Shown: positions 4,911 through 47,740 of the stretch, one piece after another
Layout of the letters: each line of letters opens with the position of its first letter
Numbering within the stretch: the stretch's first letter is position 1
Assembly (NCBI GenBank): GCA_001938485.1
Contig: MQRK01239597.1
Span: 34,159-85,276 of the forward strand
Length of the DNA: 51,118 nt
From: Girardia tigrina
Lineage: Eukaryota
Direction: 5' to 3'
The notes under the pieces: generated by a model
What the model saw: the letters and a program-made list of their open reading frames with translations, nothing else
Told to the model about the DNA's origin: nothing
Databases searched by the model: none
Translations under genes and position numbers: made by a program

Positions 4911-5015
4911 AGTTAAATCTCCAGGTTTCACTTCAGGATTCATAATAACAACAAGTAGAATTTATTAATTATTTACAATCTTTTTAGAATACTTAAACAA
5001 ATAATAATCACAACT
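4911..5015 (-). repeat. 3' LTR of family A copy 1 (105 bp)
   Basis: Direct repeat of 9196-9300 with 5 mismatches by eye. Termini AGTT...AACT, adjacent to the PPT. Confidence 0.92.
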
Positions 5016-5025
5016 TTCCCCTCTT

Positions 5026-8000
5026 TTATAATTCGTTATTCACTTTCTTAATCCACTCAATTCTTCGACGAATTATGTTTCCATCTTTCAAATTCTGTAG
5101 TTCCAATTGGTGTGGCAATATATGTCTTAAAATTTGGTACGGTTCATCGAATGGGAAAGTGTCCTTTCTCAGTTTTGTAGGATCTTGTTTTACAAAAACT
5201 TTCTGACCATCCTCGAAATGTTGATTTGTTCTCTTCTCTCTCTCCCAATTTTCCATTCGTCTTGCCGCTTTCTCTAAATTTTCTCTGACCTTCATCTTGA
5301 TCACGTTGCTCTCTTCCATTTTAGCTATTCCTGCTGCCGCATGTAAGTTTATTTTTCTACCAAACACAACTTCGAAGGGCGAATATCCGGTCGTACTCTG
5401 AACTGAGGCATTTAGACAGAATTCTATCTTCTGAATAATTTGCCACCATGATTATTTGTCTGTGTCTCTTCTGCTTGTTACTATCATGTCTCTCACTGTT
5501 CGAATAGTTCTTTCTGCCAACCCGTTTAATTGATGTTCAAATGGGCTACTAAATCTTTGTTCGATTCCATATTTCCTGCAAAAATCTTTAAATTTTCCGC
5601 CAGTAAAACATTTTCCATTGTCTGTTAATATTGTTTTTGGCTTCCCATATCTATATATCCATTTTATCAACACGAATTGAACTATGGTGTCTTCGTTTTG
5701 AGTTTTAATCTCTGTCAAAGAGACCAATTTCGAAAACTGATCCACCATGACAAATAGATATGGGTACATGCTATTCTAGTCACCCACATATGCGATATCC
5801 ATCACGACTTGCTCTAAAAACTCGTCACTTCTTATTGGATTCAACTTGTCTTTTGTTTTTTCACTTGGAATTTTTCTGCGTATACATTCCTGACATTCTC
5901 CTATAACGATATGCACCTCTTTTGCTAAATCTGGTAGCATTAAAAAGATTTGGGATGAACTTCTTTGTCTTTTTGATACCTACATGACATAAATCTCTGT
6001 GTATTTTCCTGATGAAATCTCTTCTAATTTGCTTCGGAACCAATGGTAACACACAATTTCCTTCTTGCCTACCCCATAACCCATTCTGATAAACTAATTG
6101 GTCCTTTAGTTGTAATAACTCCTTGGTGATTTCATTCCTTTCACCCTCTGCCATCTCCTGTATTTGTTTCAACTGGTTCATCTCTGAGCACTTTTCTTGT
6201 TCGTCTTTTATCCATTGAATTGTAGACTGAATCACCACTGTATTGATCTGTTTCACCCTTGCTTTTGTTGATTTTGGTTCTTCGTGTTTTGTTTCACATT
6301 GTGCACAAACGTCGTTGTATAGCCGTGATAATCCATCTGCATTTCCATGTTCGTCACCTTTTCTATACTTCAAATCAAAGTCAAAATCCGCCATGTTTGC
6401 TAACCATGTCTGGAATTGAGGAGTTATTGGTTTGGAAGTACTCTTCATATACACTAGTGCTTTATGATCAGTTCTTGCTGTAAATCGCTTGCCATATAAA
6501 TATTGTTTGAAATGTAACATGAACTCTTGCAAAGTTAATAGTTCCTTTCTAGTCACACAGTACCCTTTTTCATGTGCAGTTAAAGTCCTCGATGCATGCA
6601 CGATTATTACTTCTTTCTCTTCTGATATCTAACTAAGAACTGCTCATATCGATCCGAATGATGCATCTGTGTCTAAGATGAAATTATTATTCGGGTTCAC
6701 AAATGCTAATATTGGTGCACCACATAGCTTTTGCTTCAATTCGTTAAAACTTCTGTCGCACTTGTCTGACCAAAAATATTTCTTTACATTTTCCGCTGCA
6801 TGCAATGTATAAAGGTGCTGCAAATTCTGCGTAATTCTTGATAAATCATCGATAGTGTAGTTACACAGATCTAAAAATGCTCGTAAATTTCGAGTACACT
6901 TTGGAATCGGAAAATTTTGAATTTCAGCCACTTCAATTTATTTGTTGAGATACCTTCTTTGTTAATTTTATGTTCCAGAAATACCAACTCCCCCACTCCG
7001 AATTAGCATTTCCCTGGATTGATTTTTAAACCTCCTTTCTTCAGTCTATTCGGTACTTCTTCTAATAATCTCATATGATCCTTCATTGATTTTGAGTAAA
7101 TTAAGACATCATCTAGATATATTACTACTCCAAAGAATAGTAAATCTTCAAATAATGAATTCATTATTCTCTGAAACGTTCCGGGTGCTGTTAAAAGTCC
7201 AAACGGTACACGGTTAAAACAATACTACTGTGTTCTTGTGCAAAACGCAGTCTTTTCTTGAGAACTTTCATCCAATGCTACTTGATGGTATGCTTTGCCT
7301 AGATCTATACTGAAAAAAATTCTGGAGCCACCCAGAGCATCCATTAACATTTGGCTGTCCGGTATTGGAAAGGAAACTTTCTTTGATACCTCATTCAATT
7401 TTATGAAATCTAAACAAATTCGAATACCTCCATCTTTCTTTGGCGTAATGATTAATTTCATTCACATTTACATTTCCGAATTATTCCTGCCTTTTCAAAT
7501 CCCTTCAGAAACCTTTGATTTGACTTTCTAAATGAATCGATTGCCTTCTTGGATTCAGAAAAATCGGTTTACCTTCTGTTTCAATTTTATGGACAACAAT
7601 ATCCTTAAATCCCAGATTATATTCATGTTTCATGAAAACATCATCATATCGCTTCACAAGGTCTTCCAGTCGTTTGTTTTGCTCTTGCAGTTTCATATCT
7701 TTCTCCACTCTCACAACTGACTTCTTGGTAGTTTTTTCAAGTTTGATTCCGAATTTATGCATGACATGAACACCACAAATGACTGCCGGTCGGATTGCTT
7801 TCACCACTAAAAAATCTACCGGATGACACTCTTCTTTCCATTTCAACTTCACTGTCATTTTTCCCAAACACTTATGGCCTTCTGAAAACGCTCCATTTAG
7901 TATAATTGGGCTCTTTTCTTATCTTGGTTGTCCGATTTCCAACCAAAGCCTCTCACTAATAACTGAAACACCCGCTCCACTATCCTACAACATTAATACA

Positions 8001-8134
8001 TTGTGAATGTTCAGCTTAACATTGCTCCACCATCTACCATCTGACTCATCTACTATCTATGCAATTCGATATTTTGGATATTTTATACCGACTCCACAGA
8101 CGAAATGCTCACCATGGAGTCTCTGGCGTTTAAA
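5026..8134 (-). pseudogene. pol: pol (PR-RT-RH-IN) pseudogene
   Basis: ORF fragments 5026-5367, 5452-5769, 5861-6601, 6644-6931, 7225-7461 and 7505-7867 are collinear pol domains separated by stops and frameshifts. Confidence 0.92.
8061..8134 (-). promoter_or_regulatory. -1 programmed ribosomal frameshift signal (U UUA AAC plus predicted pseudoknot)
   Basis: The heptamer is in the gag frame, followed by a 6-nt spacer and a 10-bp stem. The -1 frame is the protease frame. Conserved at 42978-43051. Confidence 0.82.
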
Positions 8135-9228
8135 TCATCTTCATATTCATCTTTATATGATTCCATATCCATGTTGTCTTCATTGAACACATCTTTGATA
8201 CATGCTACATTAACATTCTTAATATGATTACAGTTTCTGAACCCACGTCCACTTTTTTCACAGATTAAACAATGATTATTTAAAGGACAATCTTTTCCAC
8301 AGCAATAACAATCCCCTGTGGTTAAATGTTCCTCTTCTGGAGTTGGAAGTCTCTTTATTTTGCAATACAACTTCCTTGCTTCGTACAAAGCCGAATGCAC
8401 CGGCAATTATATTGCTGTTTATCTTCTGACATACTACAGGATCCTTTCTTAATTTTATTAAATCTTTCCGATGGTATTCTGCGTTCCGTTCTTAATATTG
8501 GTTGTCTATCGTTTGATTCATTCAATCTTGCTGTATTTCTTTTATGTTCAGGATTCTCATATCTTCTAACTTGATATTTGTCTTTCTTTTCCATTTCTAC
8601 ATACGATGTTTTGACGGATAAAACATCATTTCTTTCTTCTTTTGATATGTTGTCCTCATAAATCTTAGCTTCCGCTTTCATTTCACCCACCGATATGTTA
8701 GGTTTGAAAACAAATCGATCCTTCAGAACTTTAGATTTTATCCGCTTTTTCAAAAGTTCATTCAAAATTTCTTCATCGCTGTTTCCTAAAATTTTCAATT
8801 GTTTTCCGAACCCTTAATTTGAATGTTTCGAATCTTTCATTCTCACCTTGATAAATTTGGCTTAGTTTGTCCAATTCTTCGAACAGCGGTACTTTCTTTA
8901 TAAATGTTTTCTGGTACCAATTTTTGGATTCCACATCAGACATTGGTTTCTTATCTTCTTCTGTTGCATTCCCCCAAAGAATCTTTGCTTTGTCTATCAA
9001 CAAATAGTTACACCGTTCCGAGAATGTTAACCCAAAAAATTCTGAGAATTTGCATATGTCTCTATACCATATTTGACCTTCAGAATCCACTCCAGTGTAC
9101 TCCTTCATTTTCTTCTCGAGAGTTTCCTTAAAGATTGATGGAAGTTCTAGTTTTGGAAGCATCAAAACTTTTATTGGAACGCCAGTGTGGTCGCCATTTA
9201 AATCTTCAGGTTTCACTTCAGAATTCAT
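8083..9228 (-). pseudogene. gag: gag pseudogene (two frameshifts)
   Basis: ORFs 8773-9228, 8355-8798 and 8083-8406. Degenerate CCHC knuckles CYCCGKD.. / CLICEKSGRGFRNC. Homologous to 43000-44129. Confidence 0.85.
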
Positions 9229-9300
9229 AATAACAACAAATAGAATTTATTAATTATTTACAATCTTTTTAGAATGCTTAAACAAATAATAATCACAACT
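9196..9300 (-). repeat. 5' LTR of family A copy 1 (105 bp)
   Basis: Repeat of 4911-5015. Its last base is shared with the first T of the PBS. It contains AATAAA and the gag-frame ATG at 9228. Confidence 0.92.
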
Positions 9301-9773
9301 ATTTTAGTTAAATATATTGTTTTACAAAGAACTAATTCTATATTTTCATTATTTATCAAAACATATGTTTAGTGAATCTCGAATTAAATATTAGGATTTT
9401 TTTAAAAAAAATTTTTAATTCAATTATGAAATTGATATTAATTTTTAACTTGAAAAAATATGTATTTTATATGAAAAAAATCAATTTAATTTGAAAAAAT
9501 ATCGATTTAATAAGAAAATTATGTATTTAATACGAAAAAATATCAATTTAATATGAAATAAAACTTTTAAAATACAAACGTTTACAATTCAGCTTGCCAC
9601 CAAGGAAGAAGTTTAATTAACTATAAATATAAAAATAACATTTAAAGTCTATTTTGCATAATAAATTAAGATTTTTTTATATTTAATTTATATTTTTTTC
9701 ATATTAAATTGATAATTTTTAATATTAAATACTTTTCTTTCACATTATATTGATAAATTTTCATTTTAAAATG

Positions 9774-9816
<43 letters not shown>

Positions 9817-10367
9817 AACAATAAATATTGATTATAATCAAAAGAATAAAATTAAATATGCAGAGTTCGATAATTCTTACGGGAAACTGGAATTATATGT
9901 AATTGTTCGCCGATGTAGCTCGTCAACATATAATCAAAAATCATTGTCTCCTCATTTTCGATCACAGACGACGTAAATTCCATAAATATCTCAATCAATC
10001 AAATATCGCGGAATACATTGTTGTAAAAGGAACTACTATGAGGAAGAATGCTCTCCGTGCAATATTGAATAAAAGCTATGTGGTTTTTGTGACAAGAGAC
10101 AAAAACGACGTGTAATTTGTAAGGGTGGTGACACATCAGAGATGTTAGTTAACACAAAATGAAATAGAGGAAAACGACAGTTTCAACTACAATGGAGGTA
10201 ATATGGGATCAGAAAATATTGTTGAGATAATATTCTATTTTGTCCCTCCCTGTGACCCAAATTCCGCTTAATAACGCCAAAGTGTCGCAATCACGCAAGT
10301 AATGCGCCTTCTCTATTATCAGCCAAGTAGGGGAAAATTGGCATTCGACACACAAGACCCCCCCCCC

Positions 10368-10500
10368 GTTGCATGACAACGGTTACCATAGCAACGGTCG
10401 CGGTTACCACAGCAACGGTCGCGATCACCCTAGCAACGGTTCCGATTGGTCCCCGGTACCTTGGAAACATTTCTGATTGGTTCCCAGGTCCCTAGAAATG
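10368..10500. promoter_or_regulatory. Left array of RFX X-box-like palindromes plus two inverted CCAAT boxes
   Basis: GTTGCATGACAAC 10368, GTTACCATAGCAAC 10382, GTTACCACAGCAAC 10403, ATCACCCTAGCAAC 10424, GGTACCTTGGAAAC 10455. GATTGG at 10444 and 10475. Motif match only. Confidence 0.55.
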
Positions 10501-11149
10501 GTTTCGGTATTAGATTATTATGCAGATGTTATGTATTATATTAATGCATGTTTGAAGTACAACAGGAGTTTTTACAAGTCGTTTTAACATGTAAAATAAA
10601 AAGTTATGTATCTTGGTTACGGTAACCATAGTACTTGTGATTATACTTGTGTACATTAGGAGATTCATGTGGTATTGTTGATGGTAAACAACATACATAT
10701 ATCATATGGGTATATACGAAAAATAGATTTTTGAGCACTTTTTTGAGAATTTCAGAAATGTTCGAAAAAATTGATTTATCAGCACTTTTTTGAAAATATT
10801 GATGTGGAATCTGAATGTACGTATATGAATTACTATTCAAGTGCATCAGCACTTTTTTTGATATTCTGCTTTTTTGTACCTTTAAAATCGATGTGCATTT
10901 TGTGTAAATTTGTACATTATGTTAATTATAGGGAAAAGTAATCAATATATGAAATTTCTAATTGCACATTCAGATAGAAAATCAAAATGTGCATCAAACA
11001 CATGATATAGATTTTTAACACTAGTACTTTTAAAAAATTTTATGTATTGATTTTTGCACTTTTGCACATGTGCAACTTAAAAAGCACTGTGCTAGCATAT
11101 TAGAAATGTGCGGCATAATGTGCACTATCGATTAGCACTTTTTTCTTCG

Positions 11150-11292
11150 GTTGCTAAGAAAAGGGTTGCGGTTGCTATGGATGCGGTAATCGTTACCATG
11201 GTTACAACCATCTTGAATCACTGCATCCATTGCTAATGAAAAAAGCCCTTGGTTACCGTTGCTATGGGAACCGTAACTGTTACTATGGTAAC
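11150..11292. promoter_or_regulatory. Right array of RFX X-box-like palindromes
   Basis: GTTGCTAAGAAAAG 11150, GTTGCTATGGATGC 11171, GTTACCATGGTTAC 11192, GTTGCTATGGGAAC 11258, GTTACTATGGTAAC 11279. Motif match only. Confidence 0.55.
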
Positions 11293-12126
11293 AGTAACAG
11301 TGGGGTCTTGTGTGTCGAATTCCCATCTTTTTACCTACTCAGCCATTTTCTCACTTTTTACATAATCAAAATGGATGTAATAATTTAATTCGAATTTCAA
11401 TCTGTCTTTCATGGCAATGAAAACAGGTCCTTGTAGCCTTTTATTAATGAAAATAATCAATCTAGCTTACGAAATTCAATACAAGAATTTCAACTCCAGA
11501 CTTCTTTGCAATTCAAATATGTTTACCGGTGAAAATACGGCTGTTCAAAATAACGACTCTAAAGTTTCAAGTTTGACAAATTCAGAAATCTCAATCGACT
11601 CAAAATCAGTACTTAAGTATTCTGAACATGTCGATGTCCGCCGATTTGTGTCACATAGTGAAACTCAACAAACTGATTTCCAAAAGGTATTTCTGTGAAC
11701 CATCCAACCTTATCACTAATAATTTTTCGGGTTTCCTGGATTAGCTGAAACTGGAAATTCGTTGCATTAAGCACTCTCACCGACGAATTTCCATCTCACT
11801 AACAGCATCTAATCAACAAGATCATCCTAGAAGGTTTAGTAACAGATTAAACAAGAAAATCAGTAGTAGTGCAACAAATCTCATGTGACAATTTCAGCTC
11901 AGTCATTTGGACTTTGCCAGAAACGTACTTATCGTTGGTCTTGGAATTCCGAATCTCAATCTATTTTTTGTATCGTCAAATGATTTAACAATAGACTGGG
12001 TGCTTATTGTTCTATTCATTATTATTATTCATTATTATTAATTATTCATTATCTGTTTATATGTAGTTATTTTAAAAAGTTGATGGAAGAGGAAAATACA
12101 TCCAATTTCTTTTTCCATTACACAGA

Positions 12127-12161
<35 letters not shown>

Positions 12162-12207
12162 ATATAAAAAGTTCATGTAAAAGCAGCTTAAAATTTTATT
12201 TGATAGG

Positions 12208-12731
12208 TGTGAGGAATATTTTAAATTTGGTATGTTGAAATTGGTTTGTTGAATTTTGTATGTTGAGTTTAGTATTTGGAAATGTGTTTCTCTATCCAGA
12301 TGGAAAATTGATATTTTAGATGTTCACGATAAATAATTATTCGAGTATAATTTATATTTTAAAGTACACTATAAGATATTTAAAAACATTAAAAATATAA
12401 AATCTTCATATTAAAATTTAAATAAAATAAATAGTTTAACTAAGTTTTGAATTAATTAAATGTTCTTTCTTTACATAAAATAATTTTTANNNNNNNNNNN
12501 NNNNNNNNNNNNNNNNNNNNNNNNNNNNNNNNNNNNNNNNNNNNNNNNNNNNNNNNNNNNNNNNNNNNNNNNNNNNNNNNNNNNNNNNNNNNNNNNNNNN
12601 NNNNNNNNNNNNNNNNNATTATCAATTTAGAACGATGTCGAATGACGAGAGTTTCGCTGAGAGTTGTCCAAAAGACAATTCTGATTGTAATGAAAATAAA
12701 AGTTTGAAAAGCCATGTTGGTGTTCTTAATA
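12208..12731 (+). mobile_element. Solo LTR of a Gypsy family B relative (spans an assembly gap)
   Basis: Starts TGTGAGGAATATTTT and ends TGTTCTTAATA like the other family B LTRs. 5-bp TSD ATAGG at 12203-12207 and 12732-12736. The N gap could hide internal sequence. Confidence 0.85.
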
Positions 12732-17644: not shown

Positions 17645-18037
17645 GGATAAAAACAAGACGACACGTTTCGAGATAATAAAAATCCCATCATCATGTAACA
17701 AAATGTACCAAGCAGGTACACTATATGGAAACTTGCCGAAAATAAATAAAGTTTATCCAATAAATTATTGGATGAAAATAACTTTATTTCACTTTTCCTT
17801 AAAATTAAGAAAAATGCAATCTAGAAGAGAAAATACAAGGAATAGAAAAAATGAACGAAAAGAATACACAAACATACAGTACAGAGGTCGGATTGGATAT
17901 ACGAATAGAAGAGACCAAGTAGCAGATTTAGAAGACTTCGATGACGAGTGGGAAAGAATGTCGGAAAGATCGAATAAAAGAGGAGGTCTAACAAGAAGAG
18001 AAAATATTACAAACATGAAAAATTTCAGAGACGAACA

Positions 18038-18079
18038 GGGAAACGAGGAGGCACGGTCACAGGGAGAAGTGATCAGTGC
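18038..18079 (+). promoter_or_regulatory. -1 frameshift signal (G GGA AAC plus bulged hairpin)
   Basis: The heptamer is in the gag frame, followed by a 6-nt spacer and a 10-bp hairpin. The -1 frame is open into the protease ORF 18101-18394. Confidence 0.8.
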
Positions 18080-21000
18080 ACTTCACTAAGAAACGAATGT
18101 ATGTGTATGTTTGACTGTATGAATGATTGCTTGTATGATGACGTATGTTGTTTATTGGACACTGTTGAAAATATTCCTCAAGAATTGTGTATATTAGATG
18201 GTGAAAAAGAAATACACAATGAGAAATGTGACATTTTGATCACAGAAAAAGATGAAGAAAGAAGCACAGAGATAATGAAAATATCAAAGTTTAAAATAGA
18301 ATATGAAGAACTGAAAGGCAGACCTAGTATAGGATTTCAAATAAAGCATAAAAAATTAAGATGTCTACTGGATACGGGAGCACGAGTCAATTAAATTAGA
18401 CGTACTCAAAAATATGAAAAATACCAAAATAAAGGAGACAAAAAGACGTATACACTGTGCTTACGATTCAGAACTAGTAAATTACGGTATAGTACAACTA
18501 AAGATTAAGATTGAAAGAATACAGAAAACAGTGGATTTTTTTGTGGTTAGAGATTTGGAACCCGAAATGAATGCAGGAATAGATTTCCTAAATAAATTCA
18601 GCATAAAACTAAAGAAACATGATACAACAAAGGAGTGCTGATAATACGAGATACTTTAAATGGCGGAGACAGACTTAAAAGAATAAGGGAAATATACGCA
18701 GATAAGATAGATGAACCATTAATGAAATTAATAATATAATATAAAACGATATTTATGGCGGACAAATGGGATATAGGGAAGACCACACTAACTAAGCATA
18801 AAATTTAAACGCAAGGAGAATCAATATTGGTAAAACCGTACCGAGAGCCAAAACACTTTGAGGAAAAACTAGATGATATTACCAAGAGTTACGAGGAAAA
18901 TGATATCATTGAAAAATGCAGTTCGCCGTGGAATTTCACGCTAGTATGCGTATGGAAAAAAGACAAACATGATATCCGAGTATGTGTTGATTTTCTACAA
19001 TTAAATAAAGTTACAATCGGTCCAGCATTTCCAATACTAAATGTAGAAGAAATGCTAAATACATTAAATGGAGCGAAATACTTCAGCACGATCGACTTGT
19101 GGAGTGCATATCATCAAGTTGAATTGGAGAACGATTCAAAATTAAAAACTGCATTTTCGACAAAGAACGGCCAATATTGATTTAAAAGAATGCCATTCGG
19201 AATTGCAGCTGCCCCAGCGACATTTCAAGAACTAATGACAAGAGTGTTAGGAGAATTAAACTGGAAAGAAACAGTTGTATATCTGGACGATATTCTAATC
19301 TTCGCAAAAGACAAAGAAGAACATTTCAGACGAGTCGAACACATATTTCAAAAGATTAAAGAATTGGGCCTTCGGATAAACCCTGAAAAGTGTCAGTTCA
19401 TGGTAGAAAAGACAAAATTTTTAGGATATGTCGTGAGCAAAGATGGTATAGAGACAGATAAAACGAAAATTGAAGCAATCAACAAATTTCAAAATCATGC
19501 ATTAAACATTTAAGAAGTTGTCTTGGGTCTAATGAACTATTATAGAAAATTTTTGAATGATTATGCAAAATATTCAAAAATTCTGGAAGGACTATGTGGA
19601 AAAAATAAAGAAAAAAAATTGACATGAACAAAGGAATGTGACGAGGCATTTAAGACATTAAACGATAAAATGACAAAAACACCGATATTAGCATATGCAG
19701 ATTTCGAAAAGGAGTTTATACTGGATACAGACTCTAGTTTTGGTACAATCGGGGCAGTACTGGCACAGAACGATGCATACGGAAGGGAAAGAGTAATTGC
19801 ATATTGATCCTACAAGATGAACAAACACGAACTGGGATACTGTATTAAAAGGAAAGAATTATTGGCAATCTATTACTTTACCCAACACTTCAAACATTTC
19901 TTATACGGAAAGTAGTTTCTATTTAGGACGGACCATAAGGCCATCACATTCATGATGACAACGAAGAACCCAATAACTCCACAATTCCAAACTTGGATAA
20001 ACTTCCTTAGTAGACTAGACATGAGGATGGAATACCGCAAGGGCGAAAAACACACTAATGCAGACGCAATGTCGAGAAATACATGTGAACTATGTGTACA
20101 ATGTCAGACAATGCACGATGACGCTAAAAAAGGAAAAGTTAAAACTAGAATCCTAGCATTAACAGAAGATTCAGAAGAGTTCATTTGGCAGACGAATGAT
20201 GAAGAAATAGAACAGATTAAAGAAAATATTAAAATGGGAAAGACAAAAGAATGGCTACTGAAAAACAATATCGTGACTACAAGAGATAACAAATATTGGA
20301 TCCCTATGAAGAAGAGAACAGACTTTATAGAAGATATACATAAAATGTTATGCCATGCAGGAAGTAAGAAAGTATACAATTACATAAAAGATGATTTCGA
20401 GATGTATGAAATAAGATAACAGATAAAGAAAATCGTACAAAGTTGCGAAAACTGCCAGAAAAGGAAGACGCTGACGGAAAAAACGAAAGAAAAACACATT
20501 AAACAATCTGCCGACGAACCCTTTCAAAGAAATTACATGGACTTTTGCGGACCATTCAGAAGGACTAGGAATGGATACCAATACATTTTAGCAATAATCG
20601 ATCAATTTAGTAGGTACAATAGCTTGACCGCAGTAGCACACCAAGACGAGAAGACTACACGAAAGGCACTTTTAGAGAAATGGATTTGGAAATTCGGACT
20701 TCCAAAAGAGATACACATTGATAGAGGAAAAACTTTCGAATCAGCACTCTTTAAAGAAAAGACGAAAAAATGTAAGACGGAGATAGTCTATTCAAGCCCT
20801 TATCACCACAACACTAATGAGATCATAGAAAGACACTTTAGAATAATAATAGACGCCATAAATATACGATTAAAGGATGAAATGCATAGAGATTGGGTAG
20901 AAATGTTGGTAGAAATAGAATTCATGTTAAACGGTGCAATTCAAGCAACAACAGGAATATCTCCAGCCGAGATAATCTTCGGAAGAAAACTAAGACATTG

Positions 21001-21249
21001 GTGGAAAACTACAACAGAAGGAAAAAGTGGAGAAAAAGAAAATAAAAATATAACTGAAACAAAGCGAATATTTCAGGTCGGAGAAAGTCTTGATAAAGAA
21101 AATTAACCCATCAAAAGATGATGACCGTTATATGAGACCAGCTAAAATTATAAAGCAAAGACACGAAAGAAGTTATTAGATACAACTATAGGATGGCAGG
21201 ATCCTGATCAGAAATGTAGAATGGCTAAAGCCATTTAAACTGAGGGGGA

Positions 21250-21711
21250 TGTGAGGAATATTTTAATTTGTTTGAATGTGTATATGTATGGATGTTGTAT
21301 GCTGATTTAAGTATGTTGAATTTAGAATGGTGATTATCCTACCCAGATGGAAATTGGTATTTTTTTTATTAAATTTAAAGTGATTGACTATTCGAACACA
21401 ATTAAAATTAAGTTTAATATTTTTTAGTAAAATTTAAATTAAATGCATTTTTAATAATTTGATGACATTTTTATTATTTTAAGATTTATTGAAAAATAGT
21501 AAAAATTATTATTTTTTTAATTAATATTTTTAGAGGCTAAATATTTTAAAAAATAATTTAGAAAAATTGTTCGAATAATCATGATTAAAATCAGAAAAAA
21601 GAAAACGAATTAGAAGGATGACAAATGATGAAAGACTTTCTGAGAGTCGTAATGACTCTAAATGTGATTGTAATAAACATTCAAACGAGACTTGTTTAAA
21701 TGTTCTTAATA
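21250..21711 (+). repeat. 3' LTR of family B (462 bp, TG...TA)
   Basis: Follows the PPT and is closely similar over its full length to the solo LTR at 47279-47740. Confidence 0.93.
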
Positions 21712-26204: not shown

Positions 26205-26462
26205 AATTTAAATGGTCCAAGAGTACTTCTCCAATAACAATAAAATTCGCAATTTTTTTATATTTCTATTAAACAAAGAATCTAAAATAAAAAATATATA
26301 AATAAAATATAAAGAAGTATAATATTATTGGTTAAAATCTATTGAAATTATTTATTAATTTTTGATTGGATCAATGAAAAAAAAGTTTATTAAAGTTATA
26401 AACAACAAAACTTTTGATTTCAGTAAAACAAAATAATATTTCAAGAATATCAAACATACATT

Positions 26463-27599
26463 ATGAATTGCTCATTTTCAATTAGTTGTCAAAATAAAAC
26501 GATACGTTATTTTTCTATATCATTTTATACAGTGTTAATTATCATTGGAACCTTTGGAAACATTTTTGCAGTTTTAGTGATTCGATTCACTCGAACGATG
26601 GGCAACTCGAAGAATGTATTCACAGCTCTCGCCATCGCCGACTCTTTGACTTTGTGGATTAATCCTTTACGATATTGGATTAGTTTCCTATTTCAGTTTG
26701 AAATTCGTACTTCGAGTGATGGTTTGTGTAAGTTCCATACGTTTATGAGTTACTCTTCGAGAGACATTGCAACTTGGATTTTATGTCTGCTAACCTTTGA
26801 AAGGTTTATTGTCGCTTGTGCCCCGTACAAGTCAAAGATCATTTGGCAAGGTTATAAAATCATACTGGTGTGGATCGTGATAATTTCCGCATTATTAGCA
26901 AAAAACAGTCCCGTTATTTGGCAGTTGAAAATCATGACTTCCAAAACCAAACTCTGTTTTTGTGATACTTCTGATGTTGTTTTTAGACATTGGTTTTTCT
27001 ACTTGGATATAATTGTTTATAGTATTGTCCCATCGGGTCTTTTACTGATTTTCAATTTGGGTATTTTAAAAGCCCTTAGAAAAGCAAAAGCTTACCGATT
27101 AGAAGCTTGTCGAGAGAACTCCTGTTCAACCACAGTTCATAACTTAACCCTTAAAAGTCGTTATATAACCAAAAGCAGTTCAAGAAAACAAAATCATGGT
27201 AAAAAACCCATTAACCTTACCAATCGTTTACTAATTCCTGTGTCCATTTTTCACATGTTTACGTCAATGCCCTTATGTATATTCTCAATTTTAGAAGCCA
27301 ACTTGAAATGGAAAGATAATGCAGATTCAAAGATTGTTTATTTTGCATTTTGCACTGGTCCCTTTCTTGCAATGATTACTGCGTGTAATAATGGAATCAA
27401 CTTTCTTCTCTACTTCTTGAGTTCAATTACGTTCCGTAGAAATTCAAAGGTGGTTTTATTAAAAATCTTTCAATTCTATCGATCTCCAAACAATGAAGAA
27501 AGACTCTTTCTTGAGCAAAATTATACGATTACTCAACTAAGAACACGAATCCCAACAAATAAAGATGATAATCAAGATACTTTGAAGAAAGACATCTGA
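26463..27599 (+). CDS. Rhodopsin-family (class A) GPCR, peptide-receptor-like orphan, 378 aa, single coding exon
   Basis: Intact ORF with 7 hydrophobic segments: TM1 GTFGN, TM2 LAIADS, TM3 C...LTFERF, TM5 IVP..LL..N, TM6 TSMP, TM7 INFLLY, helix 8 FR. N-glycosylation sequons NCS and NKT. TTTCAG acceptor-like site ending at 26423. Confidence 0.93.
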   Translation: MNCSFSISCQNKTIRYFSISFYTVLIIIGTFGNIFAVLVIRFTRTMGNSKNVFTALAIADSLTLWINPLRYWISFLFQFEIRTSSDGLCKFHTFMSYSSRDIATWILCLLTFERFIVACAPYKSKIIWQGYKIILVWIVIISALLAKNSPVIWQLKIMTSKTKLCFCDTSDVVFRHWFFYLDIIVYSIVPSGLLLIFNLGILKALRKAKAYRLEACRENSCSTTVHNLTLKSRYITKSSSRKQNHGKKPINLTNRLLIPVSIFHMFTSMPLCIFSILEANLKWKDNADSKIVYFAFCTGPFLAMITACNNGINFLLYFLSSITFRRNSKVVLLKIFQFYRSPNNEERLFLEQNYTITQLRTRIPTNKDDNQDTLKKDI

Positions 27600-32399: not shown

Positions 32400-33530
32400 T
32401 GTTAATGAAATTTCCAGAAGAAGTGGTATTCGGATTATTGTTACTGCAATTATAATTCTGATCAGTGTCATGTTAATTTATTTTGTTCGGTATTTGATTT
32501 TTGGATTCGGGAATTGTTGTAGTTACTATTGAAGATGGCCAATTGACGAGTAAGAATTGATTCGATAAATTGGGATTGCAAATGGCAATCCAAGATTCTG
32601 ATTCGTGAATTAAATTAATTGATTCCAACTCGGAGCTATCGTGATCAATAAATTCAGCAACGGTTTCGTAAGAATCAATGATGACATTTGAGAACACTTC
32701 GCATAATGCTTCTCCAGCAAATTTAAAATTCTTGTATTCTAAATCATTATTTATAGTTTTTCCATTTGAATCAAGATGAGTACCATAATAATCATGTTGA
32801 AGAATGAGTCCATTCGACGTTCTCCTAGATTGAATGCACTGCGATGGGGAGCATTAGTAGATATGAAGATCGCATCAAGACTACGTTCGATGAAATGATG
32901 TATAGCTGTTTCAATTACTTTTTGATAACGCGGATTTTCATCTGGACCACCATCAACTAAAATTATCATTACAGGTTTTAGTAAATTATTTTCACCGAAA
33001 AGAAATCGTTTTAACTGATCAACGTCATATAAACGTTTAAAATCTTTAGCATGTGAATATGCGGTCGAATGAGAATGCTTTCCTGATCTTACAGCGATGT
33101 TTGTAGGACCAGAATATTGAACTGCATTTGGATCACCAAAAACGTTGTTATCAATCGTTAATGCAGCATAAACTGAAGGTATCAACTTGTGTTGTTGAGC
33201 AATAACCTAATCATGATCAGGAAGTTTGACTCGATATTCCATGTTCATCAACAACGGCGCTTGACAATTAGCTGCAGGTAAACCAATCGGTACTTTTGCC
33301 TTATCGTCTTGACTAATGATCACTACTTCCTCAGGACCTAAAAAAGATGCGAGCTCATGGAGATTATTGTAAGTAGCTGTGCAAAAAACAGAATCCGGGT
33401 GACTTTTATGATTATCTCGCAAGGCCTTGATTAAGCGAACTGGAACTGTTTTAACATGTTTCTTATCATCAATTGAACGATAGTTTCTTGGTTGAAGATG
33501 ATGATACACCGTTGATCTACCAATTTCAAT
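32400..33530 (-). mobile_element. DDE transposase pseudogene, probably Zator superfamily
   Basis: SQDDKAKVPIG, LPDHD*VIA..HKLIPSVYA, YSGPT.IAVRSGKH, VDGGPDENPRY and NAPHRSAFN.GERRM. The family call is from recalled motifs, and no TIRs were found. Confidence 0.68.
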
Positions 33531-34027
33531 ATCCCTCCCATTATCCCATTACCATACTTTGTAATTCAAATTAATTTTAATTTACTTTTTAATTACAAGT
33601 TATTTTTGGTGAAAAGTCATTTTCTGTTAAAACTCTCACAAAAAAATAAAAAATGCATTTGTATTTCTTAAAATAAGAGGAATACATTCAGATCTATGTA
33701 TTTAAATGTTACATTAAAATCGTTAAGAATGAGATTCATTTGTTTTTTGCTAATTTTGATAAATCCGCTTTTAAAATGTCACAATGATTAATGTTTAGTG
33801 TCTAAATTTGAGTTTTATCTTTCGAAGAAATCGTTTTATTTTTAGAAATCTACCTCAAATTCAAGTGACAATCTTTTCCATAGCAATTAGCAACTTTAAA
33901 GTGTTTATATTAGAATATTTTTACAGTTAATATATAACCACAGGTTAAAGTTTTAAGAATATTTTAAATTGTGTATGAACGTGGTGTATTGATTTCAGTG
34001 TACTGAAATCGGAATTGTGATTCTGTG

Positions 34028-41336: not shown

Positions 41337-44225
41337 AGTTAAGATATTCGACTACATTAAGACACTTGACAATTCAAAATTTATTAATTTGACACCAATA
41401 GTTAATTTAAACAAACCTTCATTAATATTTCCATAATTTCCCCCTCTGACATTTGAGGTTCATATCTTCTTAAGCCATTCAATTTGTCTTCGTACCTGTC
41501 AACCATCTGCTTGATTTTGTAACTCAAGTTGATGAGTGATATATGTGTTATAATTTTAAATGTGCCTTCAAATCGGATCGCATCCTTCTTTTGTTTTTGA
41601 GGATTTATCTTTACCATAACCTGTTGACCATCTTCAAAATTTCTCTTCGTTCTCTTCTCTCCCTCCCACTGTTCCATATGGTTTGCTGCTCTTTCCACAT
41701 TTTCTTTCACGATCTTTTTAATATCTTCTCCCTTTTCCGTCAGTGACACTCCTCCAGCAGCGTGCAAATTTATTTTCCGTTTAAAAACAATTTCAAACGG
41801 CAAAATCCGGTTGTACTTTGTACCATCGCATTAAGCGAAAACTCAATTTTGGGAATTATTTACTACCACATCTGTTTAACCTTCTCTCTATTGGTTGTCA
41901 CCAACATATCTCTCACTGTCCGAATATATCGTTCTGGGAATCCATTGGATTGATGCTGGAATGGACTACTACACCGATGTTCAATCCCATGTTTTTGACA
42001 GAATTCCTTGAACTTCGTACCCGTAAAATACGTTCCATTATCTGTTAAAATTCCTTTTTTTTATCAAATCTATAAATCCATTTAACCAGATTACATCGAA
42101 TTACAATATTTTTGGATTGCGTTCTGATTTCCGTCAAACTCACTAGTTTTGAGAATTGATCAACTATCACTAACAAGTACGAATAATTTGAATTTCTATT
42201 TCAAATGAAAGCATGGTGATCCATAAAGAGCATCAAATAACATCTGACTATCCGGCATCGGAAATGAAACCCTCTTAGCCACTTCATTTCACTTTCTAAA
42301 ATCCAGAGACATCCGGATTCCACCATCCTTCTTTCATCCTTCTGTGAACCAATGGCGAATTCCAATCGCTTTAACATTTTCTAATAAAACCCGCGATTTC
42401 CAATCGATGCAACACATCTTCCACTTTCTTTTCCAAGTGTATGGATTGCCTTCTAGGGTTCAAAAATATTTGTTTACTATCCGTCTCAATTCTGTGAACT
42501 AGCACCTCTGTAAATCCTAGATCCTATTCATGTTTCATGAATACATCTTCATATCGAACCACGACTTCTTCCAACTCTTTACACACTTTTGCGGATTCCA
42601 TATTATCTCCAACATATTTAAATTTCTGCCTTTTCCTTGTGGTTTTCTTCTTTTATTAATTTCAGCTTAAATTTCTTGATTGCATCGATTCCTTTGATAA
42701 TCTATGGTCTAATCTCCTTGACCAAAACTAATTCAACCTTCTGCGACTCGACTTCCACTCGAAAACAATCATTATTTTACCTAAACATCTATGACTTTTC
42801 GAAAAAGCTCTGTTCAAAATAATCCCACGTGGAACCATTTTTGGTTGCCCAATCTTTTTCCATTCATTCTCACTAATTACTGAGACACCCGCACCACTGT
42901 CCCACAACATCGAGATCACTTGAACTCTGATTCGCACTTCATTCCACCATCTTCCATCTGTGCAGACCTTCATATCCGCACTTCGTTTTTCTTTCGCATT
43001 TATATCGATTCCACTGACGAAATGCTCACAATGGAACCGTTGGCATTTAAATCTTCCTCCAAATTTTCTCCTTGAATTTCCCGATCTCCTTTATATGTTT
43101 CTCTGATACATATCAGATTCAACTATCGATTCTAGTAACACTGACGGAAACCATGTCCGCTCTTTCGATATATTAGGCGATTTCTTTTGGTATGTCCATG
43201 TTTTCCACAACAATAACAATCTCCTTTCAATAATATTTCTTCCTCAGGTTGTGGGAGTCCCTTTACCCGGCAGTACAATTTTTTGCTTGAAACCACGCTG
43301 ATTGAACTGGTGTTACAACTTGTTGAGACGGTTTGGAGACCATAATTGATTGAAGTCCCCCAGTTACCCCCTGTCGCCCACTGAACTGTTCTACAGGCCG
43401 TCGGTCTGTTGTTTCTTTGAATTTGGCCTGGCTGTTTCTGAATTTCTGAAAAGATACTGTATCCTTGTATTGATTTATTTTCTGAATTACTTCTGCAAAT
43501 GATTGCTTTCTCGTCATAACAGCAACTGATTCTTCTCTTGTTATATTATTTTCATAAATTATGGCTTTGTCCCGCATCTCTTCGATCGGCATTCTCGGTT
43601 TGAATACAAACCTCTCCTTCAGCACCTGGGATCGTATTCTTTTTCGTAGTAACTCTTCTACGATGTATTTACTTCGTGCCTGTAACTTTTCCACCGCTTC
43701 TCTGACTCTCAGTTCGAAAACAAAAAAAAATCATTTTCTTTTTGTTCTATATTACTTACCGCTTCAAGATATTCTAAAACTGAGCTCTTCTTCGTAAACA
43801 TCTCCATAAGCCACTGCTTGGTCTCCTCATCTGACACTGCTTTCCTATCTTCTTTGAAATTTTACCATAGAGTCTCCGCCTGCTCTGTCAACATGCCGTC
43901 GAACAATGTCATGAATGATATTCCCATACATTGAGTCCGTTGGCACATATCTGCAAACAAGGATCCTGCTTCTTCCGTAGATTCCATTGAAAGGCCTCAG
44001 TTTCTTGTTGATCGCATCGGTTAATGCTTTCGGCAGTTCCAATTTCAGTATTGATTGGATGATTTTCACTCCGTTTCATGGAAGTTCTTCTTGTTTGGCG
44101 TGGTCGCCAGTTAAGATATTCGACTTCATTAAGGCACTTGACAATTCAAAATTTATTAATATAACACCAATAGTTAATTTAAAATCTTTATTAATAAGTC
44201 GTATTTTATTAATATTTCCATAACT
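41337..44225 (-). mobile_element. Ty3/Gypsy family A copy 2, internally deleted (2889 bp)
   Basis: LTRs at 41337-41438 and 44109-44225, PBS TGGCGACCACG, PPT AGAGGGGGA and TTTTT flanks. gag, protease MLWDSGAGVS and the start of RT are joined near 42200 directly to the integrase core (DQFSKLVSL). Confidence 0.92.
42978..43051 (-). promoter_or_regulatory. -1 frameshift signal (U UUA AAU plus predicted pseudoknot)
   Basis: Same architecture as 8061-8134. The -1 frame is open into the protease ORF 42728-42973. Confidence 0.82.
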
Positions 44226-45367: not shown

Positions 45368-45901
45368 CTAAAATTCAAGCTCCCAATCGTCAATTGTGGT
45401 CCTTAAGAGGACCGTATTTCCTTCGCAATTATTAGAAGCACTTGAGGAAACACTGATGAAATAATCTGGTTGAAACAATTTCCCAAGATTCGAATTCAGT
45501 ACATAATCGAGAGTGGTACTATTCAATTCAACCATGACGCTGATCGGCACACACTTTCCATGAATTCCAGAAGTAAAGTAAACGTAAATTCTTTGTAATT
45601 GCAAATCACTGTCGCTTTCGTAAACACCAGTGGTCGGTTTGACACCGTGTTCGTTGGTGATTATTTTCCAAACCTTCGTTTCGATACTGTTTCCACAACT
45701 TTGAAATATTCTCATTAATTCATACCATTGATCATGAATGTCTTCACAAATTTTAATAGGTGCTGAACTTTCGTTAGTTTCTTTGATATGCAATCTCCGA
45801 TCGGGAATTCTTGCATGATTATCTTCAAATGTCTTTATAAAATAATCTACATTAAAAATATAGTCAAATGGAAAAGTTATCTGTTCTTTTAAATTAGACA
45901 T
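45368..45901 (-). CDS. Unknown 177-aa ORF inserted antisense inside the hAT transposase (possibly a truncated gene copy)
   Basis: Long ATG-initiated ORF in very AT-rich DNA with globular-protein composition. The frame stays open for ~50 more codons after the TAG. No transposon motif recognised. Confidence 0.5.
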   Translation of the reverse strand: MSNLKEQITFPFDYIFNVDYFIKTFEDNHARIPDRRLHIKETNESSAPIKICEDIHDQWYELMRIFQSCGNSIETKVWKIITNEHGVKPTTGVYESDSDLQLQRIYVYFTSGIHGKCVPISVMVELNSTTLDYVLNSNLGKLFQPDYFISVSSSASNNCEGNTVLLRTTIDDWELEF

Positions 45902-47278: not shown

Positions 47279-47740
47279 TGTGAGGAATATTTTAATTTGT
47301 TTGAATGTGTAAATTTATGGATGCGGTATGTTGATTTAAGTATGTTGAATTTAGAATGGTGATTCTCCCACCCAGATGGAAATTGGTATTTTTTATTTAA
47401 ATTTAAAGTGATTGACTATTCGAACACAACTAAAATTAAGTTTAATATTTTTTAGTAAAATTTAAATTAAATGCATTTTTAATAATTTGATGACATTTTT
47501 ATTATTTGAAGATTTATTGAGAAAATGGTAAAAAATATTATTTTTTTAATTAATATTTTTAGAGGCTAAATATTTTAAAAAATCATTTAAAAAAATTTTT
47601 CGAATAATCATGATTAAAAATAGAAATAAGAAAACCAATTAGAAGGATGACAAACGATGAAAGACTTTCTGAGAGTCATAATGACTCTCAATGTGATTGT
47701 AATAAACATTCAAACGAGACTTGTTTAAATGTTCTTAATA
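47279..47740 (+). mobile_element. Solo LTR of Gypsy family B (462 bp) nested in the hAT transposase
   Basis: 5-bp TSD CTCGC at 47274-47278 and 47741-47745. Removing it restores ...SMTHSR|KANLVLLSF...RRLQLF*. Confidence 0.95.

Follow-up and report, generated by a model that had tools for sequence, protein, structure and literature searches.

The stretch of Girardia tigrina DNA analyzed here (51,118 nucleotides, called the window below) carries one copy of a short mobile element whose two arms hold ten sites resembling, as a close fit in base sequence, the X-box of the RFX/DAF-19 transcription factors. Eight of these are set in arrays with a period of 21 bp. The element is very probably of the Polinton/Maverick type. 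Taking all of the evidence together, we lean to the view that the arrays are sites for host RFX, inherited from the terminal control region of a Polinton.

The window is AT-rich DNA with remnants of mariner, hAT, and Gypsy elements and one intact GPCR frame. This frame (26427-27599, plus strand) is intronless and of the rhodopsin family; its strong named relatives are tapeworm proteins, at 33-39% identity, which points to a flatworm host; composition and repeats would suit a triclad living free. On the minus strand, 4913-9300 is taken up by a decayed Gypsy, bounded on both sides by a 103-bp direct repeat (96%). Pieces related to it lie at 41337-44196, and a further Gypsy occupies about 17900-21100. 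A dispersed repeat of 463 bp is found at 21250-21711 and 47279-47740 (95% identical), with shorter relatives at 12208, 14781, 36091, and 48864. A degenerate tubulin-like frame at 45368-45901 (minus strand) scores E 4.7e-7, below the Pfam cut-off. Broken transposase-like frames at 32473-33548 (minus strand), one piece of which was searched without a Pfam match, are taken by us to resemble Zator transposases.

Boundaries and class of the element

The element is delimited by the following features.

10320..10325, plus strand: left copy of the target-site duplication, CAGCCA, 6 bp
10326..11339, no strand assigned: non-autonomous element, very probably Polinton/Maverick-type, 1,014 bp, without a recognizable gene
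10326..10361, plus strand: left terminal inverted repeat, with the tip AGTAGG and a 19-bp block at 10343-10361
10511..11139, no strand assigned: AT-rich interior, 28% GC, without a matrix site of at least 8 bits
10616-10633: degenerate inverted box within the interior
11302..11339, minus strand: right terminal inverted repeat, with CTACT at its end
11340..11345, plus strand: right copy of the target-site duplication, CAGCCA

The termini read AGTAG…CTACT, and CAGCCA flanks them on either side. Among 25 such starts and 34 such ends in the 51-kb window, only one pair comes with a 6-bp duplication; the chance of a matching 6-mer is about 5e-4. Ends of the form AG…CT together with a 6-bp duplication are the signature of Polintons, or Mavericks (PMC8097293, PMC10045372).

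Other placements were ruled out. Duplications of 3-5 or 7-11 bp fail, and the alternative boundaries TAG…CTA were dismissed on reading the sequence. IS3EU/GingerRoot, the other family given with a 6-bp duplication in PMC10045372, has termini TA…TA, occasionally TG…CA, and was excluded by the AG…CT termini of the element.

With described Polintons, the element shares its AG…CT ends, its 6-bp duplication, and its inverted ends (PMC8097293, PMC6431247, PMC3014272, PMC10748475). Autonomous members, however, are 13-25 kb long, whereas here there is 1 kb, and a Pfam search of these 1,014 bp found no gene for pPolB, integrase, ATPase, protease, or capsid. None of the 12 internal frames of at least 40 amino acids reached the Pfam cut-off, and neither did any of the 33 frames in element and flanks together; a check for non-coding RNA gave no Rfam match in 9800-12200. 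By its length and by the absence of a Pfam match at the cut-off, the element is not an autonomous Polinton.

The tip differs as well. Vertebrate Mavericks end in (AGT)2, (AG)3, or (AC)3A, with AGTAGT the commonest (PMC8097293). AGTAGG, found at both ends of the element, is neither (AGT)2 nor (AG)3; it agrees with (AGT)2 at five of six positions, a criterion that was drawn from vertebrates only. The terminal inverted repeats of intact vertebrate Mavericks measure 46-1,447 bp (PMC8097293); those of the element are shorter and less perfect, and its arms are short, imperfect, and asymmetric. It is for its tip, its short repeat, and its missing genes that it is filed as non-autonomous with Polinton-type ends. 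The features of a MITE (short, non-coding, with inverted ends and a target duplication) are of course present too. Within this frame, the left terminal repeat, 10326..10361, would be the candidate core for integrase and replication.

The arms had been described as inverted copies that are not exact, and this is how they align: 31 of 38 columns are identical at the tips, and similarity then continues at 72.9% over 96 columns. The 19-bp block is perfect in both arms and absent from the rest of the window. The asymmetry may have been taken over from the parent, or the element may be a hybrid that joins two related ends. Decay at an even rate since the insertion would account for it poorly, giving 0.15 for the intact duplication and about 0.05 for the 19-bp block.

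A search by the strict end pattern found no further copy in GTDB, and phage records, searched by blastn with the element as query, gave no match. Directly inside either arm there are no core-promoter words (TATA, TCAGT/TCATT). A hairpin at the ends is not significant (z -0.54 and -1.44). The word AGCACTTTT occurs four times in the element (10734, 10781, 10848, 11134) and seven times in the whole window, and TGCAC words are numerous in the interior; these may represent a further binding motif, or else a fragment taken up from some other repeat.

The flanks (9850-10325 and 11340-12000) have 33-35% GC and broken reading frames, for which there was no Pfam match at the cut-off, no homologue, and no Atlas match. 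They are perhaps decayed coding sequence that was struck by the insertion. Just to the left of the element lie two AT-rich arrays with a period of 21 bp (9444-9563 and 9652-9774), inverted with respect to each other and 76% alike over 95 bp.

X-box-like sites and CCAAT boxes

The sites in the two arms are arranged as follows.

10368..10380, no strand assigned: X-box-like 13-mer, 12.8 bits, 14.5 bp center to center from the left array
10382..10437, plus strand: left array of three X-box-like 14-mers with a 21-bp period (21.1, 15.7, and 12.6 bits)
10427..10488, plus strand: 31-bp direct repeat, each unit holding an X-box-like site and, 6 bp beyond it, GATTGG
10455: X-box-like site of 12.0 bits in the second unit of the 31-bp direct repeat
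11150..11205, minus strand: right inner array of three X-box-like sites with a 21-bp period (8.8, 16.1, and 18.6 bits), the spacers differing
11258..11292, minus strand: right outer pair with a 21-bp period (20.4 and 18.1 bits)

The sequence-only reading of this DNA had counted about ten palindromes of 13-14 bp. The three 14-mers that it quoted were found, as were the eight phased positions; the sites at 10368 and 10455 bring the total to ten. As palindromes, the 14-mers are imperfect, with 2-6 of 7 pairs matching. The spacing of exactly 21 bp holds at 10382/10403/10424, 11150/11171/11192, and 11258/11279, but other neighbors are 14.5, 31, and 66 bp apart.

Sites were scored with a DAF-19 matrix made from 30 of the 31 validated X-boxes in Table 1 of PMC3245922, the 15-bp nph-1 site being left out. 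When the window is ranked by this matrix, the top six sites all fall in the element. Eleven sites reach at least 12 bits; nine of these are in the element arms, and none of 200 dinucleotide shuffles equaled this. At a threshold of at least 8 bits, with overlapping 13- and 14-bp matches tallied separately, the left arm has 7 sites and the right arm 5, against shuffle means of 0.5 and 0.39 (0/200 in each case). Judged by matrix and shuffles, the proposed likeness of the sites to RFX X-boxes is a close one.

Individual sites make the same point. Site 11279, on the minus strand, is the osm-6 X-box letter for letter, site 11258 is the bbs-1 X-box, and a third differs by one base from a validated X-box. 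The DAF-19/RFX promoters themselves are built differently: they hold one to three boxes, irregularly spaced, upstream of a start codon (PMC3245922), whereas no gene lies downstream of the boxes in the element.

The word GTTNCYATRGNAAC, at one mismatch or none, has five matches in the window, all in the element, where 0.41 are expected (0/100 shuffles). Inward RGYAAC half-sites form five pairs 21 bp apart, and five pairs at any single distance of 10-44 bp were reached in none of 20,000 random placements. Such shuffles and placements ignore tandem duplication, of course; what they establish is that the arrangement is not random, rather than that it has a function.

In pairwise comparisons within the window, identity is 292/392 in boxes and 35/70 in spacers, and between the arms it is 158/210 (75%) and 18/42 (43%), where the values for boxes are inflated because boxes were picked by their likeness to a consensus. 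The inward half, RGYAAC, is perfect in all eight phased boxes. The outward half is so in 4 of 8, and 41 of its 48 positions fit the palindrome. All eight boxes are oriented alike relative to the tip, in both arms. Two spacers in the left array are identical, which points to a recent tandem duplication. Uneven decay of this kind would be expected of protein-binding sites. That motif and period are kept better than spacers, one of the outcomes by which the sequence-only reading was to be judged, is borne out within the window and also against the end of an unrelated element, described below.

CCAAT boxes had been assigned to both arms, and this is wrong for the right arm, in which neither CCAAT nor GATTGG occurs. 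GATTGG, which is CCAAT on the minus strand, is confined to positions 10444 and 10475 of the left arm, 31 bp apart, as had been noted. Each box belongs to one unit of a 31-bp direct repeat whose two units are 71% alike, so that the pair represents one event. Both fit the context RRCCAATSR, which is the consensus for NF-Y, and about 31-32 bp is one spacing at which tandem NF-Y sites occur. Binding of NF-Y to these boxes is possible, if somewhat doubtful.

X-boxes and CCAAT boxes are combined in the enhanceosome of MHC class II genes, which is specific to vertebrates; there, RFX5 acts with NF-Y, and the gap between X and Y is about 19-20 bp. The element resembles this module in having an X-like box with an inverted CCAAT after it (CTGATTGG at 10473). 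Its gap, however, is 6 bp in both units, and a module of the MHC class II type was rejected on this ground. The X-box of MHC class II is mentioned in PMC5760533.

Similar sites in other repeats and at known termini

A scan for two boxes separated by any gap of 0-30 bp returned 37 loci. Of these, 31 lie in prokaryotic DNA dense with genes, where ORF cover is 0.57 or more, and the comparison of elements does not include them. The other six are gene-poor and animal-like (ORF cover 0-0.24) and fall into three repeat families. Over all 37 loci, a 7-bp gap was found in 4 (two of them bacterial) and a 10-bp gap in 7; one bacterial repeat of 21 bp (L013) shows the same pattern as the arrays.

The first family is a repeat ended by AGTAGT, found in one bacterial MAG on two contigs that are short and animal-like (L015, 1843-2254; L033, 2084-2508). 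The two copies are 92% identical over 426 bp; their shared part stops exactly at AGTAGT, and beyond it the flanks differ. Three X-box-like sites (12.8-23.9 bits) follow each other with a period of 21 bp, starting 112-113 bp inside the tip. As the scan accepted any gap from 0 to 30 bp, neither the period, nor the third box, nor the terminus was selected for. The two spacers are unlike, sharing 0/7 bases in L015 and 2/7 in L033. Tip and boxes aside, the family has an end that is unrelated to those of the element in the window (best blastn E 0.03; spacers 43/140). Between L015 and L033, orthologous boxes agree at 39/42 positions and spacers at 11/14, which is not a significant difference (p = 0.16).

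These two loci are one family, with one end per contig and without the duplication or the gene that marks a Polinton. A Maverick end present as contamination is likely. The frame adjoining the end in L015 matched only itself in a homologue search. Both copies have a 115-bp subterminal hairpin (z -7.0 and -9.1), which, being strong here and not significant in the element of the window, is not a common feature. They also have three CACGTG words. After the boxes come four words in a 15-bp tandem that we take to be YY1-like, and further out others that are presumably an E-box and CRE-like.

The second family, in animal-like contigs of another MAG, is an imperfectly palindromic, MITE-like repeat of about 350-400 bp (L003, 7658-8043; L025, 7683-8074; L027, 7812-8074). 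Its ends differ from those of the window element. X-box-like pairs with a 24-bp period lie near the ends, at both ends in L003 and L025. The third is a tandem repeat (L018, 229-1191) with a best period of 158 and 17 X-box-like sites of at least 10 bits, often 50 bp apart. The 14-mer thus recurs, these comparisons suggest, in unlike animal repeats; with spacings of 24 or 50 bp in them, a general helical rule of 21 bp finds no support.

Known Polinton ends offer a second comparison. By eye, the ends of Polinton-2_NV and Polinton-2A_NV hold several TGACGTCA (CRE) and CCAAT words, and the start of Polinton-1_DR holds two GC boxes and a short repeat (supplement 3 of PMC8504770). Dense words that look like host-factor sites, just inside the tip, are thus shared with the element in the window, and with the first two CCAAT boxes are shared as well. 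The words themselves differ: CRE with CCAAT, or GC boxes, are seen there, and in these three ends neither an X-box nor a 21-bp array was found by eye. Clusters of this kind are thus seen in known Polinton ends, and RFX-like arrays would be confined to some lineages. Four X-box words were likewise absent from the gapped alignment of 12 Polintons in PMC8504770, where gaps and trimming can hide them. No motif words were found in the supplements of PMC10748475 and PMC8502044. The supplement of PMC8363768 gave no Polinton end sequences, and that of PMC8097293 offers a table of end motifs only.

Polintons share their mode of replication with adenovirus, in whose terminal repeat auxiliary origin sites for NFI and Oct-1 adjoin a protein-primed core origin. 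There, too, host-factor sites stand next to the core origin; the factors, however, are NFI and Oct-1, not RFX. To our knowledge, no help to replication by RFX has been described.

For RFX itself, viral precedents do exist. RFX1 and RFX3 bind the terminal repeat of AAV1/2 (the D sequence) and the EF-C/EP sites in the enhancers of HBV and polyomavirus, where they raise expression modestly; knock-down of RFX1 lowers AAV expression (PMC5760533). A host RFX site in a terminal or enhancer region is therefore common to these viruses and the element. In the viruses, however, the account in that source is of a single RFX site with demonstrated binding, whereas here about ten putative, phased sites lie in an endogenous, virus-like transposon.

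Competing explanations and consequences

The boxes might instead bind a protein encoded by the element (integrase, terminal protein/polymerase, or an accessory protein), with the likeness to X-boxes arising by convergence, much as in the subterminal repeats of cut-and-paste transposons. Subterminal sites for transposases are, of course, common. The geometry would suit such a protein, for the eight phased boxes run in the same direction from the tip in both arms with their inward hexamer invariant, and they have been kept although the element has no gene to transcribe. Yet the same 14-mer lies in the differently ended arms of the MITE-like family and in the tandem repeat, and for its presence in such unlike repeats a shared host factor is an easier explanation than the protein of one element. 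Three Polinton ends, moreover, lack the 14-mer although all need an integrase, and two of the sites equal validated X-boxes. An element-encoded binder is in our judgment rather improbable. We give still less credence to a neutral minisatellite, in which a 21-bp (and a 31-bp) unit with a chance X-box-like word was duplicated by slippage and motif and period are by-products. Tandem Repeats Finder does call both arrays, at period 21; the spacers of the left array are identical, the AT-rich arrays at 9444-9774 have the same period, and the bacterial repeat L013 shows the same pattern. Against slippage stands the unevenness of decay, with RGYAAC kept in 8/8 boxes and spacers at 43-50%. In L015, spacers share 0/7 bases at an unchanged period, and the unrelated AGTAGT end has the same arrangement.

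Two further alternatives accept binding by RFX and change its consequence. RFX could act as a repressor, the arrays keeping the element quiet, whether imposed by the host or self-limiting. RFX1 and RFX3 carry repression as well as activation domains (PMC5760533), a distal X-box represses C. elegans F25B4.2 (PMC3245922), and planarian Polintons are heavily targeted by piRNA (PMC8532177). Activation of these Polintons goes up, however, in differentiation to brain and epidermis (PMC8532177), and AAV expression falls rather than rises on RFX1 knock-down (PMC5760533); a silencing role seems very unlikely. Alternatively, a host gene could have co-opted the element locally as its RFX/NF-Y enhancer. 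The sites are strong by matrix, and Polinton repeats affect host genes at eri-6/7 of C. elegans (PMC11414722). The element lies, however, in a transposon-rich stretch between Gypsy remnants; its flanking frames are unrecognizable, and the nearest intact host ORF found, that of the GPCR, is 15 kb away. These surroundings weaken the idea of a local enhancer to the point where we give it almost no weight. With one copy in the window and no host gene found near it, the suggestion that the element spreads ready-made RFX enhancers is left unsupported.

The preferred reading, that the arrays are host-RFX sites from a Polinton terminus, would then run as follows. The element would derive from a Polinton/Maverick, as a short, non-autonomous form that the integrase of a presumed Polinton partner inserted in trans. 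Its arms would preserve what remains of the terminal control region in the parent, where sites for host transcription factors were clustered; in this lineage, the cluster would consist of RFX X-boxes, with two putative NF-Y sites on the left only. The arrays would have grown through tandem duplication of a 21-bp unit, after which box and period were kept while spacers drifted. With a period of 21 bp, RFX dimers would sit on the same side of the helix, separated by two turns. Once bound, RFX might open the termini and promote transcription of the parental genes in the inward direction; alternatively, it might help replication or integration at the ends. Activity would be expected in cells rich in RFX: ciliated epidermis, neurons, and spermatids.

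The steps of this account do not stand equally firm. That host RFX binds the boxes is somewhat more likely than not; that their phasing matters is a more tentative proposition, which we would not press. Work on planarians gives the account a plausible setting. In these animals, cilia gene modules are connected with an Rfx whose motif occurs in their promoters (PMC12660999), and Polinton H3K4me3 and RNA increase as cells differentiate into brain and epidermis (PMC8532177). The genus Dugesia shows an expansion of Mavericks (preprint 10.64898/2025.12.11.693146). NF-YB is reported to function in the spermatogonial stem cells of planarians, and RFX2 during spermiogenesis in the mouse (PMC4909293, PMC4745085, PMC4498915).

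A bolder proposal, which we regard as a long shot, is that a lineage of animal Polintons, scattered among distant hosts, has used X-box arrays in helical phase to couple its termini to host RFX. Such elements would be transcribed, replicated, or mobilized in cells that build cilia or flagella: in spermatids, which would secure inheritance, and in ciliated surface epithelia, which would allow the release of particles and spread between animals. Since the arrays have been retained in both diverged arms of an element without genes, RFX would here be a cofactor of mobilization at the ends and not only a transcription factor, in a role like that of NFI and Oct-1 at the adenovirus origin. Particles of Mavericks/Polintons have, according to PMC8097293, not been observed.

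Much of this is, of course, known in its parts. Non-autonomous elements, factor sites carried by transposons, and binding of RFX to a viral terminus have each been described before. A search by title and start of abstract, beyond whose reach most subscription papers and Repbase reports lie, found no paper that deals with RFX sites at the ends of Polintons. To have called the arrays an undescribed system was therefore an overstatement, since known Polinton ends show clusters resembling host-factor sites; what seems unreported is a terminal cluster that is RFX-like and phased.

Should binding by RFX fail, the element would be an ordinary non-autonomous one with subterminal repeats. Should it hold, the arrays may tie the activity of the element to ciliated or sperm cells. 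Any enrichment of RFX motifs in invertebrate chromatin data may come partly from repeats. With a named host factor that has a tissue pattern, the question of how and where animal Polintons switch on becomes directly testable in planarians, which offer rfx RNAi, ATAC, and CUT&Tag, and in which Polintons wake during the differentiation of brain and epidermis (PMC8532177).
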